IMG/VR virus record: IMGVR_UViG_2534682159_000017
Strand: one strand, 5' to 3'
Length of the DNA stretch: 9,381 nt
Source: a virus
Taxonomy: Duplodnaviria > Heunggongvirae > Uroviricota > Caudoviricetes
Position numbers and translations under genes: made by a program. Below, one piece after another: positions 1-9,381 of this stretch. Position 1 is the stretch's first letter. Each line of letters begins with the position of its first letter. The notes under the pieces are model-generated. The model worked only from the letters and a program-made list of their open reading frames with translations. It searched no databases and was not told where the DNA came from.

Positions 1-1242
1 ATGGCGAGAAAAACACCCCCATTAACCACAGTACAGATCAAAGCAGCCAGACCAGCAGAAAAGGAATACACCCTACAGGACGGCGGAGGGCTTTTTCTCC
101 TGATCAAACCGTCCGGATCAAAACTCTGGAGATTTTCCTACTACCGACCATCGGACAAAAAAAGAATATTGCTGAGTTTTGGATCGCTTGATGATGTTTC
201 CCTGGCTGATGCCAGAAAACGCCGTAGCGAGTACAGGGCGTTAATTCGTGCCGGAACTGACCCGCAGGACCACGAGAGGCAAAAAAGAGAGACAGAGGCC
301 AGAAGACAAGGGAACACGTTCGAAAATGTGGCAACAGCATGGTACCAGGTGAAAATCAGCCAGAATCTGGCCCCCAATACGATTAAAGACATCTGGCGAT
401 CGCTGGAAAAATATGTATTCCCGTTCATCGGCAACACGCCAATAGACACCCTGACCGCTCGCAGGTTCGTTGAGGTGCTTACCCCCATCAAGGAACGTGG
501 CAACCTGGAAACGCTCAAGCGAGTTTTACAGCGTATAAATGAGGTAATGGATTACGCCGCCAATAGTGGGATGATTGATGCCAATCCGGCTATGAATGTG
601 CGTAAGGCGTTCCCCTCCCCTGTAAAAAAACATATGCCAACAATCCGCCCCGAACAGCTGCCGGAGCTTATGCAGGCTTTATCAGTATCGGCAACAGAAC
701 GGCAGACCAGATTACTGATTGAATGGCAGTTACTGACCGTAACCCGTCCCGTTGAAGCATCGTCGGCACGCTGGGAAGAAATCGACATGGAAGCGCAACG
801 CTGGACCATACCCGCCGGACGCATGAAGATGCGCCGCGACCACGTTATCCCGCTTTGTGACCAGGCTATGGCAGTGCTGGAGGCTATGAAACCAATCAGC
901 CACCACCGCGATTATGTTTTCCCGAGTCTGAAAGACCCACAGCAGCCGATGAACAGCCAGACCGCTAACGCAGCATTACGACGCATGGGATTCGCTGGCG
1001 TGCTGGTGTCTCATGGATTACGCGCCATATTCAGCACAGCAGCGAACGAAGAAGGCTTTGAGCCGGACGTAATAGAGGCCGCACTTGCCCACGTCGACAC
1101 CAACGAAGTCAGACGGGCATACAACCGGAGCAACTACATAGAAAAACGCATCGTGCTTATGCGCTGGTGGGGCGAATTTGTCGAGGCTGCGGCGACGGGC
1201 GTAACCCTCGCCAGTGGTAAAAGGGGTATCCGAGCCGTTTAG
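1..1242 (+). CDS. int: Tyrosine recombinase / site-specific integrase, P4-like family
   Basis: 413-aa ORF. N-terminus (TLQDGGGLFLLIKPSGSKLWRFSYY) matches the P4-integrase-type arm-binding domain. C-terminus has catalytic-domain motifs (HVIPLCDQA, HGLRAIFSTAA, RRAYNRSNY with the tyrosine). ATG is at window position 1 and stop TAG at 1240-1242; upstream context cannot be seen. Confidence 0.93.
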   Translation: MARKTPPLTTVQIKAARPAEKEYTLQDGGGLFLLIKPSGSKLWRFSYYRPSDKKRILLSFGSLDDVSLADARKRRSEYRALIRAGTDPQDHERQKRETEARRQGNTFENVATAWYQVKISQNLAPNTIKDIWRSLEKYVFPFIGNTPIDTLTARRFVEVLTPIKERGNLETLKRVLQRINEVMDYAANSGMIDANPAMNVRKAFPSPVKKHMPTIRPEQLPELMQALSVSATERQTRLLIEWQLLTVTRPVEASSARWEEIDMEAQRWTIPAGRMKMRRDHVIPLCDQAMAVLEAMKPISHHRDYVFPSLKDPQQPMNSQTANAALRRMGFAGVLVSHGLRAIFSTAANEEGFEPDVIEAALAHVDTNEVRRAYNRSNYIEKRIVLMRWWGEFVEAAATGVTLASGKRGIRAV

Positions 1243-1738: not shown

Positions 1739-1945
1739 ATGGAAGCAATCAAAAAAGTCATCTTTCGCCAGGAAGTAAAAAAACTTATCCACATTAAGGC
1801 AGACAGCACGCTGCAAAGCATGATCAACGCCGGAGAATTCCCGCAGGGTTTTCGTGTCGGTTTGCGCCGTCGCGGATGGTATGAGGAAGACGTAATCGCA
1901 TGGATGAAAGAACGCGAACAAGAAGCGCGCGGAACGACCGCTTAA
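1739..1945 (+). CDS. alpA: AlpA-family phage transcriptional regulator (small MerR-like HTH, excisionase-like)
   Basis: 68-aa ORF; SD GAGG at 1726-1729, 9 nt before the ATG. Sequence pattern typical of AlpA/Vis-type prophage regulators (IHIKADSTLQSMINAGEFPQGFRVGLRRRGWYEEDVIAWM). Position directly after a P4-type integrase is canonical. Confidence 0.88.
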   Translation: MEAIKKVIFRQEVKKLIHIKADSTLQSMINAGEFPQGFRVGLRRRGWYEEDVIAWMKEREQEARGTTA

Positions 1946-2630: not shown

Positions 2631-3191
2631 ATGGTTGCCGTAAATCATATACCACACCTTGTACACACACAAACGGCCTTTGTGTGGCGTTTTCTGGCCC
2701 TGAATATCGGAGAAAAAAACCAGTTGATCGCCAGTGTCGAAAATAGCTATGATTCCCGCGCACCTCATAAAACGGGTGCCGGGATTGGCGTCCTGGGCAA
2801 AACTGAAGCGCATAACACGCGCCCCGCGTGTTTTTTTGTGCCGCATAGTCACACCTTATCAATGGTGGGCTGTACGGGGGCGGAGCAATCCGCGCCGGTT
2901 TCTTCAGTGTCCGGTTACGCCAACCCTGTACAGTCCGCCACCAGCGAAATTGGCGTTTCCGGTGGCGGTTATCTTAACCACACTGAGGAGGCTGCCAACA
3001 TGGCTACTATCCCTACCCTTGTACATTCTCAAACCGCCTTTCTCTGGCGCTTTATCATCTTTGGCGCGTCAGAACATCAAATCATCCACGTAACCGCCTG
3101 GACGGAACGCGAAGCGCGTAACCGTTGCCCGTCCGGTTGTGTCGCTGTATTCGCCGCCCGTATTCGCCAGGGGGAAACCTATGCACAATAA
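2631..3191 (+). CDS. Hypothetical protein with internal tandem duplication (186 aa); first gene of the rightward operon
   Basis: Strong SD GAGGAG (2620-2625) 5 nt before the ATG; stop overlaps the next gene start (ATGCACAATAA). Two homologous segments (IPHLVHTQTAFVWRFLAL... and IPTLVHSQTAFLWRFIIF...) differ partly by synonymous third-position changes, which argues for coding. No family recognised. Confidence 0.5.
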   Translation: MVAVNHIPHLVHTQTAFVWRFLALNIGEKNQLIASVENSYDSRAPHKTGAGIGVLGKTEAHNTRPACFFVPHSHTLSMVGCTGAEQSAPVSSVSGYANPVQSATSEIGVSGGGYLNHTEEAANMATIPTLVHSQTAFLWRFIIFGASEHQIIHVTAWTEREARNRCPSGCVAVFAARIRQGETYAQ

Positions 3192-3876: not shown

Positions 3877-4176
3877 ATGAAACTTAAATATTCTGGCTTA
3901 ACTGCCAGTGGCAACACTCACCCTAAATTTACGCGCGGTGATATTTACCGCGACCAGTACGGCGGTACGGTAATGATTAAGGGCGTGGCGGGACGGTGCG
4001 TAACTTACCGCCGTGAAGGTTACGAATATGATTGCGTGATGCCTGTTTATCAGTTCCGGCGTGATTTTTCTCTGGTACAGACCGCGCCGCATAACGTGCC
4101 CACCAGCAACTCCAGGGCACGGGCAAACATCCAGAAGCTGAAAACCATGATTAACGGATTCAGGGGTAAAAAATGA
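3877..4176 (+). CDS. Hypothetical protein (99 aa)
   Basis: SD GGAGA (3863-3867) 9 nt before the ATG; stop overlaps the rep start as ATGA at 4173-4176. No recognisable family. Confidence 0.6.
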   Translation: MKLKYSGLTASGNTHPKFTRGDIYRDQYGGTVMIKGVAGRCVTYRREGYEYDCVMPVYQFRRDFSLVQTAPHNVPTSNSRARANIQKLKTMINGFRGKK

Positions 4177-5582
4177 AACTGGCACCGAACGTAAAACGAT
4201 TACCGAAAGATAAATACACCGATGCGATTATTTTTGCGGGTATTGATGCTCATTCATTCGCAGAGCATTACATCATTGCACAGGCCAAAAAAGCAGGCGA
4301 TCCAGTCCCTCCCGTTTATCTGGGGCGTTATCAGTTAAGCGAACTGGATAACCTCCAGATTGTTGATGATGGGCGATACAGGGCGACGGTGATACGCGCC
4401 GGAAATATTGAAGAGCCGCAGCTGTTAACCATCGCCACGAAACTGGCGATCGCCGGAGTCCAGGAGGCGCGGCTACTTTCTGAAAATTTCGAATTGCTGG
4501 AGGAATGGAGCGACCAGCTTCCACGGCTTAGGGAGGCATGGGAACGCGGGGAAAGCCTGGTCATGAAAAAAATCCCCCAGCGAAAAACCACGCTACCGAT
4601 GAGCGTTGGATCTACCGGATACGACACACAGCTTGATTACGTGGTAAAGGGGATTATTCCGGCATCGTCGCTATGCAGCATATACGGGGCGAGCGGTTCC
4701 TATAAATCATTCCTTGCCGGATCGTGGGCGTGTCACGTTTCCACGGGCCGCCAGTGGGGAGGCCGCAGGGTGGCGCATGGTGCGGTTCTCTATGTGGTTG
4801 GTGAAGGCGGTATCGGCGTTCCGCGTCGTGTAAAAGCCTGGGAGGTTGTGCACGGTGAGCAGGTGAAAAATCTGTATCTGGTAAACCGTCCCATCTTTCC
4901 GGCGGTCCCGCTTGATGTTGATGAAATGGTTATCGCTGCCCGTCAGGTGGAGCGGGAAACGGGTAAACCTGTACGCATGATTATTCTGGATACGCTGGCG
5001 CGTTGCTTTGGTGGGAATGATGAAAATGATTCCCGTGATATGGGGGCGTTTATCCGTGGTTGTGACGAACTGAAACGGCGCACAGGGGCCACGGTGCTGG
5101 TGGTTCACCATTCCGGCAAGGATGAGACGAAAGGCGCGCGCGGTTCCAGTGCATTTCGTGCTTCGCTGGATGCTGAATACCGGATACGCAGAGAGGACGC
5201 AGGCAGCGAAGCGCTGGTTATCTCATGCACCAAAATGAAGGACGCGGAGGAACTCAAAGAAGCCGCATATGACTTACGCGTGGTGGAGCTTTTTACCGAC
5301 GCTGACGGGGAGTTAATCACGTCGCTGGTGGTGGTGGATAAGCCGCGCCCTCCCGTTGAACTGGAGCGCATCGAGGAGGCAGGGAACAAGACGGAGAATC
5401 ACGCCGCGCTATGGCAGTGCATCAGAACACGAACAGCACACGGGGAGGCGTGCACTATCGCCCTTCTCCGCGACGATATGAAAAAGCTGGGGTATGAGAT
5501 GAAGCACTTCCGGCGCTGGCTGTACAAGCTGGAAAATGATGGCGTAATCGTTATTGATGGTGATGACGTGCGCCCGCTGTAA
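4173..5582 (+). CDS. Replication initiator/helicase-like ATPase, RepA-like AAA_25 / RecA-fold family
   Basis: 469-aa ORF. P-loop region IYGASGSYKSFLAG, Walker-B-like MIILDTLARCFGG, and the family-typical LVVHHSGKD motif. Iteron array begins 4 bp after the stop. SD AGGGG 6 nt before the ATG. No primase domain recognised in the N-terminal 150 aa. Confidence 0.88.
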   Translation: MKLAPNVKRLPKDKYTDAIIFAGIDAHSFAEHYIIAQAKKAGDPVPPVYLGRYQLSELDNLQIVDDGRYRATVIRAGNIEEPQLLTIATKLAIAGVQEARLLSENFELLEEWSDQLPRLREAWERGESLVMKKIPQRKTTLPMSVGSTGYDTQLDYVVKGIIPASSLCSIYGASGSYKSFLAGSWACHVSTGRQWGGRRVAHGAVLYVVGEGGIGVPRRVKAWEVVHGEQVKNLYLVNRPIFPAVPLDVDEMVIAARQVERETGKPVRMIILDTLARCFGGNDENDSRDMGAFIRGCDELKRRTGATVLVVHHSGKDETKGARGSSAFRASLDAEYRIRREDAGSEALVISCTKMKDAEELKEAAYDLRVVELFTDADGELITSLVVVDKPRPPVELERIEEAGNKTENHAALWQCIRTRTAHGEACTIALLRDDMKKLGYEMKHFRRWLYKLENDGVIVIDGDDVRPL

Positions 5583-5585
5583 AAA

Positions 5586-5784
5586 GTGGGGAGTAAAAGT
5601 GGGGAGAGTGGGGAATTTAACAAAATTGAAACATAATTACCCACTTTCCCACCTGTATACACCCAAAAAAGTGGGGAGTAAAAAACATATTGAAAAACAT
5701 AACGTTAGAATCACAAAAAAAAGAGGTGGGGAGACGGTGGGTAATTTCAAAAAGTGGGGAGCAAAAGTGGGGAGTAGTGGGGAA
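5586..5784. repeat. Iteron array / replication origin
   Basis: GTGGGGA(G/A) direct repeats start at 5586, 5599, 5609, 5671, 5726, 5754, 5767 and 5777, with a degenerate GGTGGGTA at 5737. They form two clusters flanking an AT-rich segment (about 5615-5725) that holds inverted partial copies (CCCACTT 5640-5646, CCCACC 5648-5653). Confidence 0.85.
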
Positions 5785-6041
5785 TGAACAGAAAAACCAG
5801 AGATAAGACAGCGCCAAAATATAAAGCGTTAGACATGACAGAGCACGCCTTAAAGGTGGCAATCAGAACGATAGACCGCCACGCGGGGGAAGGATACGCG
5901 AAGGAACATCCCGACCTGATAAGCGCATTCATGACCACAGCAGCGGCAAACTTTGCCACGCTGACAGAACGGGAGATTGCCGAAGCGGAACAGGTAACAA
6001 CCATCAACGTAAAAACCGGAGAGTCAGGCGATGATACATGA
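5784..6041 (+). CDS. Hypothetical protein (85 aa)
   Basis: ORF begins inside the last iteron and overlaps the following gene by 11 nt. No good SD spacing; plausible globular composition; no recognisable family. Confidence 0.35.
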   Translation: MNRKTRDKTAPKYKALDMTEHALKVAIRTIDRHAGEGYAKEHPDLISAFMTTAAANFATLTEREIAEAEQVTTINVKTGESGDDT

Positions 6042-6303
6042 CCGCATAGCGGAGGAACTCGAGGCGAAAGGATTTTACCGGAGGGCGGCGGCGCGATGGG
6101 GTGAAGTCATGCAGCTGGTGGAGACAGACAAGGAACGGCATCAGGTTACGATGCGACGGCTGGAATGTTCCAGGAAAGCACAGAGGCAACCGGAGCCGCC
6201 GGATAACTTCGGAGACCTGAGAAAGGCAGTAGATCGCACTTATGCTGAAATGGGTATAGATGGTGTAAGCGATGAAATATGGTGTAATTACCAGGACAGC
6301 TAA
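6031..6303 (+). CDS. PerC-family transcriptional regulator-like protein (90 aa)
   Basis: SD GGAG (6018-6021) 9 nt before the ATG. N-terminal IAEELEAKGFYRRAAARWGEVM matches the conserved LE-x-KG-x-RRAA-x-W signature I associate with PerC/Pch proteins. Followed by a terminator. Confidence 0.7.
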   Translation: MIHDRIAEELEAKGFYRRAAARWGEVMQLVETDKERHQVTMRRLECSRKAQRQPEPPDNFGDLRKAVDRTYAEMGIDGVSDEIWCNYQDS

Positions 6304-6309
6304 TCACAC

Positions 6310-6332
6310 AGCCGGAGCAATCCGGCTTTTTT
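6310..6332 (+). terminator. Rho-independent terminator
   Basis: Stem AGCCGGA (6310-6316), loop GCAA, stem TCCGGCT (6321-6327), then TTTTTT. Confidence 0.8.
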
Positions 6333-6406
6333 GCGGGTCCTCCTGGTGGGGTGGGCCTGAACACGGGGCGGGCGGGCGCGGAAAAAGGCGCATTTTTTGA
6401 TTTTTA
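6327..6406 (+). repeat. Conserved ~80-bp GC-rich box, copy A (TTTTTTGCGGGTCCTCCTGGTGGGGTGGGCCTGAACACGGGGCGGGCGG...GCATTTTTTGATTTT)
   Basis: Near-identical to 8865-8943 apart from 2-3 small indels or substitutions. Begins in the T-tract of the terminator. Ends in a second short GC hairpin (GCGC-loop-GCGC) plus a T-run. Confidence 0.9.
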
Positions 6407-6761
6407 TGGCACCATCACCACCACTATAAGTTATTGATATATTGAAGAATAAAAATTTTTAGTGTCGAATCAGGTTGTTTTTTGTTCATCACTGGATCGT
6501 TCCCGAAAGCATTTACAAAAAAACAGGCGCAAAAAAAGCGCCCCCGATTGCTGTTACCGGAGGCGCTTTTACACGACAAAGGAGTTTTTATCGCCAGGAT
6601 GACGAGTCTTAATATTGCTTCAATAGCAAAAATGCGTCAATGGCTTTGCCTCTCTGAGAATAATCAGAAAAATCATAATCTGATTTTATGGTAGAAAATG
6701 ATTTATCTATTACTTTTATCGATCAATAATGATGCCCGTTAATCAAAACGGAGGCGGATTT

Positions 6762-6956
6762 ATGCCAGAGAACAACACCAGAAAGCCGGATAAAAGTGCC
6801 ACGGTACACATAGACGCCGGAACTATGGAGAAGATCGAACGCTATCAGCAGTTCATCAAAGATAATCACCCGGGTATGCCAGTGCCCACGAAAGGACAAA
6901 TCACACGCAGCGCGGTTGAATACTGGTACAGGGCAACGTTAGGAGCCTGGCTATGA
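6762..6956 (+). CDS. Small protein with a possible ribbon-helix-helix-like fold, translationally coupled to the protease-capsid gene (64 aa from the ATG at 6762; the track ORF begins at 6729)
   Basis: SD GGAGG (6750-6754) 7 nt before the ATG at 6762. Stop overlaps the capsid-gene start (ATGA at 6953-6956). Fold call rests only on the pattern SATVHIDAGTMEKIERY...GQITRSAVEYWY and is weak. Confidence 0.5.
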   Translation: MPENNTRKPDKSATVHIDAGTMEKIERYQQFIKDNHPGMPVPTKGQITRSAVEYWYRATLGAWL

Positions 6957-8842
6957 AAACATGGTTTTCCATTAAGGCTATGGCAGATGTTGTACATGTG
7001 CGCATTTATGACGAGATCGGCGGGTACGGTGTAAAAGCATCGGCACTTACTGACGAGATCAACGCGTGTGGTAATGCGTCTGAAATCCATCTTCGCATCC
7101 ATTCACCTGGTGGCGACATCTTTGAAGGGCTGGCTATCTATAACGCTCTGAAAAATCATCCGGCAAAAAAAATCGTACACATTGAAGGCATGGCGGCTTC
7201 TATGGCGTCGTTTATTGCCATGTGTGGAGATCACATCGTTATGCCTGAAAACGCGATGATGATGATACATGCCCCCCGTGGTGTTACTGCCGGAGTGTCG
7301 GGCGACGTTCGCCGCTTTGCTGATCTGATGGACAAGCTGGGCGACACGATGGCAGAAACCTATGCCGGAAGAACGGGCAGGAGCAAACAGGAGATCACCT
7401 CAATGATGGAGGCGGAAACCTGGATGGATGGCAATGAGTGTAAGGCTAACGGCTTCGCAGATGAGGTTATACCCGCGATTACAGCAATGGCCCGAATTGA
7501 ATCAAAACGAATCGGAGATTTTTCAAATATGCCGGAAAAAATTAAAAGCATGATCAGCCAGAAAACTGGCAGTGGCGAACAGGAACGACTTAACGGAATC
7601 CGTGAATTGTTTGGCACCTTCAACGGAAGATATAACGACCTGGCTATAAGTTGTCTTGCGGATTCAGAATGTAGCGTTGAGAATGCACGCGAACGCCTTT
7701 TACTCGCTATGGGTAAAGAATCAACGCCAACAAACAAAACCACCCCCGCAAATCTTTACTACGCGTACACGGATAACGGCAATATAACTGGCGATGCCAT
7801 GCGTCAGGGGCTTAATGCGCGTCTTGGTCACGAACGGGCCGAACGCGGTAATCCTTACGCCATGATGAGTCTTTTCGATATGGCACAGGCATCATTAACC
7901 CATCGTGGTATAAGCACGGGCAGCTACAGCACACGCTCGCAGATAGTAAACGCGGCATTCACCCACAGCAGCAGCGATTTTACCGATATCCTTGCTGGTG
8001 GCGCTGAAAAATCAGTGCTTGCAGGCTGGGAGCACAGCGGCGAAACATTCCGCCAGTGGACGAAAAAAGGTTCCCTTTCAAACTTCCGGGAAGCCCGCCG
8101 CGTTGGTATGAATGGCTTCTCAACGTTAAACAAAGTGCCGGAAGGGGCAGAATATAAATACATCACCACCAGCGATCGCGGTGAACCCATCGCGCTGGCT
8201 ACTTACGGGAATATTTTCAGCATTACCCGCCAGGCGATAATCAATGATGACCTTGATCAGTTATCAACGGTGCCAATGGCTATGGGCCGTGCAGCATCAA
8301 GAACGGTGGGAAATCTGGTTAATCTGGTGCTTACAGGCAACGTAAAACTTTCTGACGGAATAACGCTGTTTGACAAAAAACACAGCAACCTGATTGAAGC
8401 AGGACTGACAACACCGGGACTTAGTGCAGCACGTCACCTGATGCGCACACAGAAGGACAAAAATGGCGAAGTGCTGAATATTGCGCCTAAATTCCTTTTA
8501 GTTCCGGCAGCACTGGAAGATCGCGCGTTGCAGATGATTAACTCAACCGCACCTTTCGGGGCTGATAAAAACAGCGGGATCTTTAACCCGTACCACAAGC
8601 TACTTGATATCATCGTCGATCCCCGCCTTGATGATATCAGCGAAAAACAATGGTACATGCTTTCCGCACAGGGAACGGACACAATCGAGGTGGCTTATCT
8701 TGATGGCAATGACGAGCCTTACCTTGAACAGCAGGAAGGTTTTATCGTTGACGGCGTGGCCTGGAAAGTCCGTATTGATGCAGGTGTGGCAGCTCTGGAT
8801 TATCGCGGTATGGTCAAATCAGGCGGTACCGATTCACTATGA
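6953..8842 (+). CDS. Fusion protein: ClpP-like (S14) prohead serine protease, N-terminal, joined to an HK97-fold phage major capsid protein, C-terminal
   Basis: 629-aa ORF; SD AGGAG (6941-6945) 7 nt before the ATG. ClpP active-site signatures GMAASMAS (Ser83, codon 7199-7201) and MMMIHAPRG (His106) match ClpP GQAASMG and MIHQP. The C-terminal ~350 aa have capsid-like composition and length. Terminator immediately downstream. Confidence 0.88.
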   Translation: MKTWFSIKAMADVVHVRIYDEIGGYGVKASALTDEINACGNASEIHLRIHSPGGDIFEGLAIYNALKNHPAKKIVHIEGMAASMASFIAMCGDHIVMPENAMMMIHAPRGVTAGVSGDVRRFADLMDKLGDTMAETYAGRTGRSKQEITSMMEAETWMDGNECKANGFADEVIPAITAMARIESKRIGDFSNMPEKIKSMISQKTGSGEQERLNGIRELFGTFNGRYNDLAISCLADSECSVENARERLLLAMGKESTPTNKTTPANLYYAYTDNGNITGDAMRQGLNARLGHERAERGNPYAMMSLFDMAQASLTHRGISTGSYSTRSQIVNAAFTHSSSDFTDILAGGAEKSVLAGWEHSGETFRQWTKKGSLSNFREARRVGMNGFSTLNKVPEGAEYKYITTSDRGEPIALATYGNIFSITRQAIINDDLDQLSTVPMAMGRAASRTVGNLVNLVLTGNVKLSDGITLFDKKHSNLIEAGLTTPGLSAARHLMRTQKDKNGEVLNIAPKFLLVPAALEDRALQMINSTAPFGADKNSGIFNPYHKLLDIIVDPRLDDISEKQWYMLSAQGTDTIEVAYLDGNDEPYLEQQEGFIVDGVAWKVRIDAGVAALDYRGMVKSGGTDSL

Positions 8843-8846
8843 CAAC

Positions 8847-8870
8847 AAGGCGGCACCAGCCGCCTTTTTT
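8847..8870 (+). terminator. Rho-independent terminator
   Basis: Stem AAGGCGGC (8847-8854), loop ACCA, stem GCCGCCTT (8859-8866), T-run 8865-8870; 5 bp after the capsid stop. Confidence 0.8.
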
Positions 8871-8943
8871 GCGGGTCCTCCTGGTGGGGTGGGCCTGAAC
8901 ACGGGGCGGGCGGCGCGGAAAAAAACGCATTTTTTTGATTTTA
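8865..8943 (+). repeat. Conserved ~80-bp GC-rich box, copy B
   Basis: Direct repeat of 6327-6406, in the same position relative to a terminator. Confidence 0.9.
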
Positions 8944-9099
8944 TCGTCATCATCATCATGTTCGTAAGTGATTGTTTTTAATTGCTTTGATGTAAAAAAG
9001 ATGATGAAGAAGGTTGTTTTTTGTTCGACATCTTTTAGCGTGACAGATTCTTTACAAAAAATCTGAGCTTGTTTTCTTCACCAGCGCGATGGGGGCACA

Positions 9100-9381
9100 A
9101 TGACAGAAGCCGAAATACTGGGATTAATCCGCCGCGTCGCCGGAATCAGCCAGCAGGTTGACGAACAGGCCACACAGCCGGACAGCATGACCGCAGATAA
9201 TTATGTGCGTGTAGTGGTGGAGGTGATGCGCCGTGATGGTATAGAACTTAATGGCGTTGATATGCGCGACATACGGATCCGCGTTCTTGAAATGCTGGCC
9301 TACAATCGCCGTGTAGAGATGTACAGGGAGAAAGAGAAAATTACGTACAACTGGAAGAAGCCGGAGCGGTTACGGCGGTAA
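9100..9381 (+). CDS. Hypothetical protein (93 aa), first gene after the capsid gene; possibly a head-completion or connector-type protein
   Basis: SD GGGGG 5 nt before the ATG; complete ORF with stop TAA at 9379-9381. Functional guess is from position in the morphogenesis module only. Confidence 0.55.
   Translation: MTEAEILGLIRRVAGISQQVDEQATQPDSMTADNYVRVVVEVMRRDGIELNGVDMRDIRIRVLEMLAYNRRVEMYREKEKITYNWKKPERLRR

Follow-up and report, generated by a model that had tools for sequence, protein, structure and literature searches.

Why would a single capsid gene be flanked by two direct copies of a GC-rich unit, each of them led in by a terminator-like hairpin? The question is raised by positions 8847-8943 of the 9,381-nt stretch of viral DNA analysed here (hereafter the window), where a sequence-only reading had seen the second copy of a unit of terminator plus GC box and, with it, an unusually insulated capsid cassette.

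The satellite island and its repeated unit

Judged from its gene content, the window is essentially the whole of a ~10-kb Gram-negative satellite island of the PICI type. It has the layout defined for such elements (PMC6092414; PMC10111431), namely an integrase, an AlpA-type regulator, a replication gene with an adjacent origin and unidirectional genes, all of them on the plus strand, and it lacks a full virion and terminase set. Since the window holds only a ClpP-capsid fusion and small ORFs, it does not fall among the capsid-forming PICIs (cf-PICIs). The features outside the repeated core are as follows.

1-1242 (+), tyrosine integrase
1739-1945 (+), alpA-like HTH gene
2760-2836 and 2858-2945, isrK Hfq-binding RNA and C4 antisense RNA (Rfam), upstream of icd-like ORFs
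3877-4176 (+), DUF4222 protein
4173-5582 (+), RepA-family helicase
5581-5793, iteron array directly after the RepA helicase gene, with GTGGGGAG iterons, AAAAAGTGGGGAGTAAAA units ~84 nt apart and shorter GTGGGGA repeats
6031-6303 (+), perC
6310-6332 (+), terminator-like hairpin AGCCGGA-GCAA-TCCGGCT with T-run, after perC and before copy A of the repeat; fold -12.6 kcal/mol, z -4.0
6729-6956 (+), 75-aa ORF (phrog_4934), translationally coupled to the capsid gene
6953-8842 (+), ClpP-like prohead protease/major capsid fusion of 629 aa, between the two copies (Pfam CLP_protease and Phage_capsid_4; PHROG)
8847-8870 (+), terminator-like hairpin AAGGCGGC-ACCA-GCCGCCTT with T-run, read in the sequence; fold -15.1 kcal/mol, z -2.6
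9100-9381 (+), 93-aa ORF (phrog_1561) at the right end of the island, after copy B

The iteron array is presumed to be the replication origin, and the isrK/C4/icd-like segment, near which a leader segment is duplicated (2648-2693 / 3008-3053), appears to be an antisense immunity module of the P1/P7/P4 style within the satellite. A 98.6% identical island in E. coli OkiPb01698 adjoins tRNA-Pro, between yejM and yejO, and a degenerate tRNA 3′-end repeat ~650 nt past the last ORF gives the island size of ~10 kb. At locus L003, tandem TTTAGTTATACG arm-type repeats lie near both island ends (5913-5937 and 15593-15617), and at attR the tRNA-Pro 3′ end is repeated in a degenerate form (CTCTCGTGGACCAAAA).

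Around the capsid gene, the 230-nt non-coding stretch that separates copy A from the 75-aa ORF (6500-6728) contains a bidirectional GC hairpin (6525-6543), is 94-96% conserved in other islands and is presumably the promoter/regulatory region of the capsid operon. The 75-aa ORF is kept upstream of the capsid gene in islands of Kluyvera, Yersinia, Rahnella and Moellerella, and the capsid fusion protein shares 51% identity with the fusion protein that the helper prophage itself encodes. The 93-aa ORF also occurs in islands with other morphogenesis modules (L091, the orf93-only class and Nissle 1917), and its junction with the variable module lies at ~9085 (GATGGGGGCACA). Neither terS nor terL was found in the window: tblastn with four TerS/Nu1 queries detected no Rpp/TerS homolog or remnant (E > 0.08), Pfam and PHROG assigned no TerS/Rpp family to the ORFs tested, and a PDB sequence search of ORFs 6729-6956 and 9100-9381 gave no Rpp/TerS match.

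The two copies form a 127-nt ungapped direct repeat, 6310-6436 (copy A) and 8848-8974 (copy B), with a start-to-start spacing of 2538, in which an exact 50-nt run lies inside a core of ~80 nt (6325-6405 and 8863-8943). A 43-nt core probe has two exact matches in the window (6333-6375 and 8871-8913, 0 mismatches) where 0 are expected (200 shuffles), which bears out the claim that a repeated unit stands directly after the capsid gene; copy B begins 5 nt past the stop codon of that gene (8840-8842). It also holds that the two direct copies bracket only the small ORF and the ClpP-capsid gene. From the T-run to the GC box copies A and B are nearly identical, with one 1-nt G indel in the gapped alignment, and past the core a weaker similarity continues for ~120 nt more (to ~+200 nt) and ends at a shared GGTTGTTTTTTGTTC (6472-6486 / 9011-9025). 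Copy B accordingly runs beyond 8943, to ~9067.

At both copies a GC-rich hairpin and a U-run follow a stop codon, as predicted from the fold for a Rho-independent terminator. A simple terminator scan lists the hairpin of copy A and not that of copy B, apparently because the extended B stem consumes part of the T-run. The stems of the two hairpins are non-homologous sequences, however, so that the homology of A and B starts at the T-run and not at the hairpin. Hence, of the supposed duplication of terminator and GC box as one unit, the hairpin and T-run before each copy stand, while the homology of the stems does not; the two terminators are best regarded, by their sequences, as analogous and not as duplicates of each other. 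The hairpin of copy A also precedes cos in island L094, where ssb is the upstream gene, as well as the lambda-type cos1 in L091 and in the satellite EcCICFT073, whose cos1 hairpin and T-run (GCCG(G)AGAAATCCGGC-T7) are the same as copy A's. Rfam, run over the whole window, matched no family at copy A or copy B. Two ORFs over copy B, 8604-8981 (+) and 8837-8959 (-), were dismissed as spurious, for they cover the cos-like sequence described below and overlap the capsid reading frame.

Homology to lambda-type cos sites

What the two copies have in common is phage-like. The stretch 8847-8943 almost certainly belongs to a site homologous to a phage cos, and it can be read as making up the left two-thirds of copy B, a complete cos site of lambda type, with the hairpin, a cosQ-like motif, a cosN-like box and the first 25 nt of a cosB-like arm. 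The predicted parts of the two sites are the following.

6330-6381 (+), cosQ-like motif (6330-6344) and cosN-like box (6363-6381) of copy A, with one extra G relative to copy B
6382-6495 (+), type A cosB-like arm, belonging to copy A; CP-1639, 1720a-02 and ASU11 match it at 94.7% over 114 nt
8868-8882 (+), cosQ-like motif TTTGCGGGTCCTCCT of copy B, by comparison with lambda cosQ TTTACGGGTCCTTCC (Fig. S5, PMC6092414)
8901-8918 (+), cosN-like GC box ACGGGGCGGGCGGCGCGG of copy B, presumed nicking/cohesive-end region, compared with lambda ACG/GGGCGGCGACCT/CGCGG
8919-9067 (+), cosB-like arm of copy B (type B), 82% over 148 nt to VT1-Sakai and Stx2 phages
8944-8962 (+), 8996-9010 (inverted) and 9021-9036 (+), R-like elements in the arm of copy B, recognised as repeats only

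The cosQ-like motif of copy B, whose 5′ end is overlapped by the T-run of the hairpin, agrees with that of lambda at 12/15 positions and is identical in CP-1639, VT1-Sakai and Stx2a prophages. It is separated by 18 nt (17 nt in lambda) from ACGGGGCGG, with which the GC box opens as does lambda ACG/GGGCGGCGACCT. In the linear record of phage mEp460_4F5 both termini fall within a few nt of the GC box, 4-5 nt left of the lambda-equivalent nick; such record ends are consistent with cutting at the GC box and are no proof of it. Taken together, the lambda-like position, the cosQ-like motif, the spacer, ACGGGGCGG and the mEp460_4F5 ends indicate that the GC box is a cosN-like site.

The 81-nt core has homologs in 25 phage records, all of lambdoid or Stx-converting E. 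coli phages, and 24 of these match over at least 80% of the core length; the identity to VT1-Sakai is 98.7%. Lambda cos sits in the gap between Rz and the terminase genes, and the core-homologous sequence lies between Rz and terS/terL in every phage record inspected (VT1-Sakai, CP-1639, mEp460 and vB_EcoS-606R10), as well as in Salmonella phage Fels-1 and in two Stx2a prophages. The homology to phage cos extends over ~200 nt per copy, including stretches without terminator features. The GC box and its flanks are therefore homologous to the Rz-terS intergenic region, as a cosQ-cosN-cosB of lambda type, and this speaks against the notion of an unusual insulated capsid cassette; nor is such an arrangement unusual, since a lone capsid gene beside cos sites is normal in phage satellites (EcCICFT073, PMC6092414).

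Lambda cos resembles copy B in its order of cosQ, spacer, cosN and cosB, which in phages stands upstream of terS, and it differs in its cosN sequence and in belonging to a phage and not, as here, to a satellite. The arm of copy B resembles the lambda series R3-(I1)-R2(inverted)-R1, where the R and IHF elements are put forward from repeats alone. A set of TCATCATC-type elements, candidates for TerS binding, is common to copy B and VT1-Sakai, namely TCGTCATCATC, then GATGATGA in inverted orientation, then one more in direct orientation; in VT1-Sakai and the Stx2 phages the type B arm lies directly upstream of terS. Copy A has no R-like element set as clear as that of copy B. Among E. coli islands the cosB arm of copy B is 90-97% conserved, and its R-like elements are conserved across islands while the spacers drift.

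The two arms belong to different phages. A-type and B-type arms are only 60-68% alike (about 65% for the window's own copies A and B), whereas the cosQ-cosN cores are 79-100% alike in the pairwise matrix, and the lists of phages that match the A arm and the B arm do not overlap; the closest phage to the arm of copy B reaches 80-87% identity. The TerL proteins of CP-1639 and VT1-Sakai are 100% identical over 670 aa, while TerS shows 54% identity between the two phages over residues 1-65 and 95% beyond them. In lambda the DNA-binding domain of TerS is its N-terminal part, and lambda and phage 21 share cosN and TerL but differ in the specificity of cosB and TerS. CP-1639 and VT1-Sakai are like this pair, with TerL and cosN interchangeable and TerS and cosB diverging together; the lambda/phage 21 paradigm of packaging specificity and the architecture of lambda cosB are reviewed in PMC9026076. 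The 1-nt G indel does not follow the cosB types but crosses them: copy A pairs a cosB of CP-1639 type with the cosN form of VT1-Sakai, and copy B pairs a cosB of Sakai type with the cosN form of CP-1639. Should the indel fall within the overhang, the cohesive ends of A-to-B molecules would not match perfectly.

The two copies in related islands and known satellites

The repeat itself is upheld by related islands, in that both copies persist in E. coli islands that use other att sites, and the post-capsid copy persists in other genera. Four further integration sites have E. coli islands in which copies A and B are retained, each with its own cosB type; both were found in the E. coli 042 island between cspD and clpS, in islands of SCU-111 and FWSEC0008, and in two islands (L090 and L095) embedded in terL of Stx2a prophages. 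The prophage around both terL-embedded islands is an Stx2a prophage with an A-type cosB (91% to copy A, 99% to CP-1639) and a CP-1639-type TerS, so that copy A matches a physically linked candidate helper. A B-type helper in situ was not found, the embedding prophages seen being of type A. The capsid-cosB-orf93 junction occurs, at a coverage of at least 80%, in 142 of 5426 complete E. coli genomes, and the copy-A region has a comparable frequency, by extrapolation from a spread listing.

The insertions in terL lie at 6670-7674 / 17719-18849 in L090 and at 4671-5675 / 15689-16819 in L095, and a Kluyvera island (L010) lies inside a prophage ClpP-capsid gene (224-562 / 11500-13149). All three are of the helper-embedded PICI type that PMC10111431 describes. 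In the PICI 11capE, a 258-bp segment at the lambda-cos position is 90% shared with the helper, that is, its cos is fully phage-like (PMC10111431). It is like L090 and L095 in being helper-embedded and differs in its lambda-E-type capsid; a second cos of the other cosB type is not described for 11capE.

The search of genome contigs with the capsid protein yielded only relatives of at most 62% identity, mostly prophages, with six loci being islands. Beyond E. coli, the capsid fusion is found at 57-62% identity in islands of Kluyvera, Yersinia, Buttiauxella, Moellerella and Rahnella, and in every one of them the capsid gene is followed at once by a cos-like site; an upstream cos copy was looked for in these islands and none was found. 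This single post-capsid cos makes the position of copy B look ancestral for the island family, and copy A looks, by the same distribution, like a later addition in E. coli. In the Kluyvera islands L009 (7448-7639) and L010 (9126-9314), the single cos is followed directly by a gene for a 63-aa protein whose homology to TerS is confined to the N-terminal, DNA-binding part (41% identity, E = 4e-16); this protein may be a minimal packaging-specificity factor. The Buttiauxella island (L012) has a full TerS-like gene right after cos. The window has a counterpart of neither gene.

Within cos, a variant cosQ/cosN (GTAGGTACTCC ... GGGCGGAGGGGCG) occupies copy A in L088 (7615-7672), L094 (12115-12172) and L095 (12267-12324), where it is joined to an A-type cosB conserved at 98-99%. 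The view that the 042-type core of copy A (GTAGGTACTCC...) is a decayed cosQ was rejected, since Yersinia, Rahnella and Moellerella islands have the cosQ variant in their only cos, and its distribution points to mosaic exchange within cos. The island L093 (E. coli JNEC-KY176; 13218-13406, 13733-19313) has the int-to-perC backbone in common with the window and, right after the perC hairpin, that is, at the A position, a lambda-type cos with a B-type cosB. It also carries a cf-PICI-like set of HK97 capsid, protease, portal, connectors, HNH, P27-type terS and terL, and two packaging systems may coexist on this satellite.

The layout with two cos sites is already known from EcCICFT073, in which both sites are functional on plasmids and the double deletion abolishes transfer (PMC6092414), and the window appears to be another member of the two-cos PICI class. 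EcCICFT073 resembles it in a size of ~10 kb, in int, alpA, a replication module with origin, a capsid homolog and the lack of terL, and in two cos sites with phage-like cosQ/cosN and differing cosB. Its cos1 is important, whereas cos2 is dispensable and its deletion raises transfer (PMC6092414; PMC6739421). The comparison was made through the cos sequences and primers printed in the supplement of PMC6092414, together with the module of L091; the PICI was not found in two 46-49 kb stretches of CFT073, which hold a lambdoid prophage and core genes, and the published delta-cos1 primer arm had no megablast match. L091 (E. coli RM7190) has the integrase and tRNA-Pro site of the window but a module of the EcCICFT073 type, with a lambda-E capsid, a decoration protein and a Nu1-like gene. 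Its lambda-type cosN sites (GGGCGGCGACCT), at 11461-11503 (+) and 12401-12359 (-), are inverted around the Nu1-like gene, and the flanks of its cos sites match the published cos1 and cos2 deletion primers.

The predicted differences from EcCICFT073 lie in the cosN type (GGGCGGCGACCT there, GGGCGGGCGG(G)CG here), in the orientation of the cos sites, which are inverted around the Nu1-like (rpp-type) gene in the EcCICFT073-type module of L091 and direct around the capsid gene here, and in the arms. The cosB of EcCICFT073 cos1 is unlike that of any helper and is read by an Rpp-TerS heterocomplex (PMC6739421), whereas both arms in the window are phage-like and no Rpp/TerS gene was found. Of the Rpp redirection of the EcCICFT073 type, the window thus shares the two cos sites and not the combination of Rpp with a helper-unlike cosB. 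The literature searched yielded no description of a direct two-cos arrangement around a capsid gene. The cos-type SaPIs include SaPIbov5 and SaPIbov4, for the latter of which PMC6092414 cites two putative cos sites. To go by that citing account, they are like the window in combining the helper's cos with a diverged capsid homolog (Ccm), and differ in being Gram-positive, in an unrelated cos sequence, and in that size redirection by Ccm is demonstrated while the ClpP-capsid fusion is known from sequence.

Use of the two copies and what it would mean

Based on these findings, we propose that copy B is a working lambda-type packaging site, with a probability of about 0.7, for which its homology to phage cos, its position and its conservation argue. 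[quoted passage not shown] TerL would then nick at the GC box, the concatemers would be packaged rightwards, along the direction of the island genes, and, with the head filled, packaging would stop at a subsequent cosQ/cosN. In such a scheme the shared cosQ/cosN would be read by TerL; the two cosB arms match two phage lineages.

Whether both copies matter to the island is a separate matter. Tentatively, and at somewhat less than even odds, the two cosB arms may each mimic one TerS class, as a helper-range device of a satellite that has no Rpp/TerS adaptor; the cosQ/cosN shared between the two cosB types would be read by a TerL that many Stx and lambdoid phages have in common, and with TerL identical and the N-termini of TerS divergent between the two lineages, either TerS class would probably be usable. 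Several observations count against such dual use of helpers, namely the 80-87% identity of the closest phage to the arm of copy B and the want of a B-type helper in situ, while the single cos of the relatives in other genera counts against any need for two sites. The crossed 1-nt indel in cosN fits a simple model of one cos per helper poorly, and the dispensable cos2 of EcCICFT073, the deletion of which raises transfer (PMC6092414), is a caution.

The last point leads to the main rival, which we consider unlikely: only one copy would be used, and the other would be a neutral or mildly harmful by-product of recombination with helpers at cos, in the manner of EcCICFT073 cos2, whose loss does not lower transfer but raises it (PMC6092414; PMC6739421). 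A recent capture would explain why copy A is ~95% identical to present-day phages, and the islands of other genera have one cos, at the B position. Moreover, the homology between related islands breaks at the cos core (matches end at 6404-6420) and L093 has a B-type cos at the A position, which together mark cos as a mosaic junction. Against this rival, the cosQ-, cosN- and cosB-like parts are intact in both copies across different integrases and att sites; these intact parts and the conserved R-like elements of copy B between drifting spacers suggest selection on both copies.

Two further readings are weak. It is very improbable that the units of terminator and GC box act as transcriptional insulators and turn the capsid gene into a cassette under regulation of its own, because the hairpin stems lie outside the repeat and the repeated part is homologous to phage cos over ~200 nt, also where it has no terminator features, with the GC box aligning with lambda cosN. 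The strong hairpin and T-run before each copy would suit insulators, as would the 230-nt non-coding stretch from copy A to the small ORF, with its room for a separate promoter. On the other side, no Rfam family is matched at the copies, and to see in these terminators the normal ends of perC and the capsid gene is explanation enough. Just as improbable is the reading in which the direct repeats exist so that the 2.5-kb capsid module can be deleted or exchanged, whether through homologous recombination or through cuts made by terminase at the two cos sites. An exact repeat of 50 nt suffices for RecA recombination, and the sister islands L091 and L093, with the same integrase, fill the interval from the replication genes to orf93 with wholly different modules. 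It also counts in favour of this reading that classical cos-duplication phages of lambda, when packaged, drop the stretch that separates their cos sites. Yet no deletion product (perC, hybrid cos, orf93) is present among the loci inspected, and such exchange would follow incidentally from the cos sequences held in common, not from a designed function.

In conclusion, the feature is real, conserved and biologically meaningful, yet it is largely an ordinary example of a two-cos PICI. The insulator-like "terminator plus GC box" is a tempting misreading, corrected here to a probable DNA-packaging site, and the island family with the ClpP-capsid fusion is placed by it among the cos-type PICIs mobilised by Stx-converting and lambdoid phages. 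Two satellite strategies come into contrast, the copying of a helper's cosB, as here, and the use of an adaptor or mini-TerS, as with the Rpp of EcCICFT073 and the 63-aa gene of Kluyvera. Why some PICIs have two cos sites was left open by the authors in 2019 (PMC6739421). The paired cosB types, set against phages with identical TerL and divergent TerS, offer a testable handle on why PICIs keep two such sites, and the helper-range reading of the two arms would, if true, answer that question for one island family. The placement among cos-type PICIs, finally, bears on the spread of perC-type regulators in STEC.
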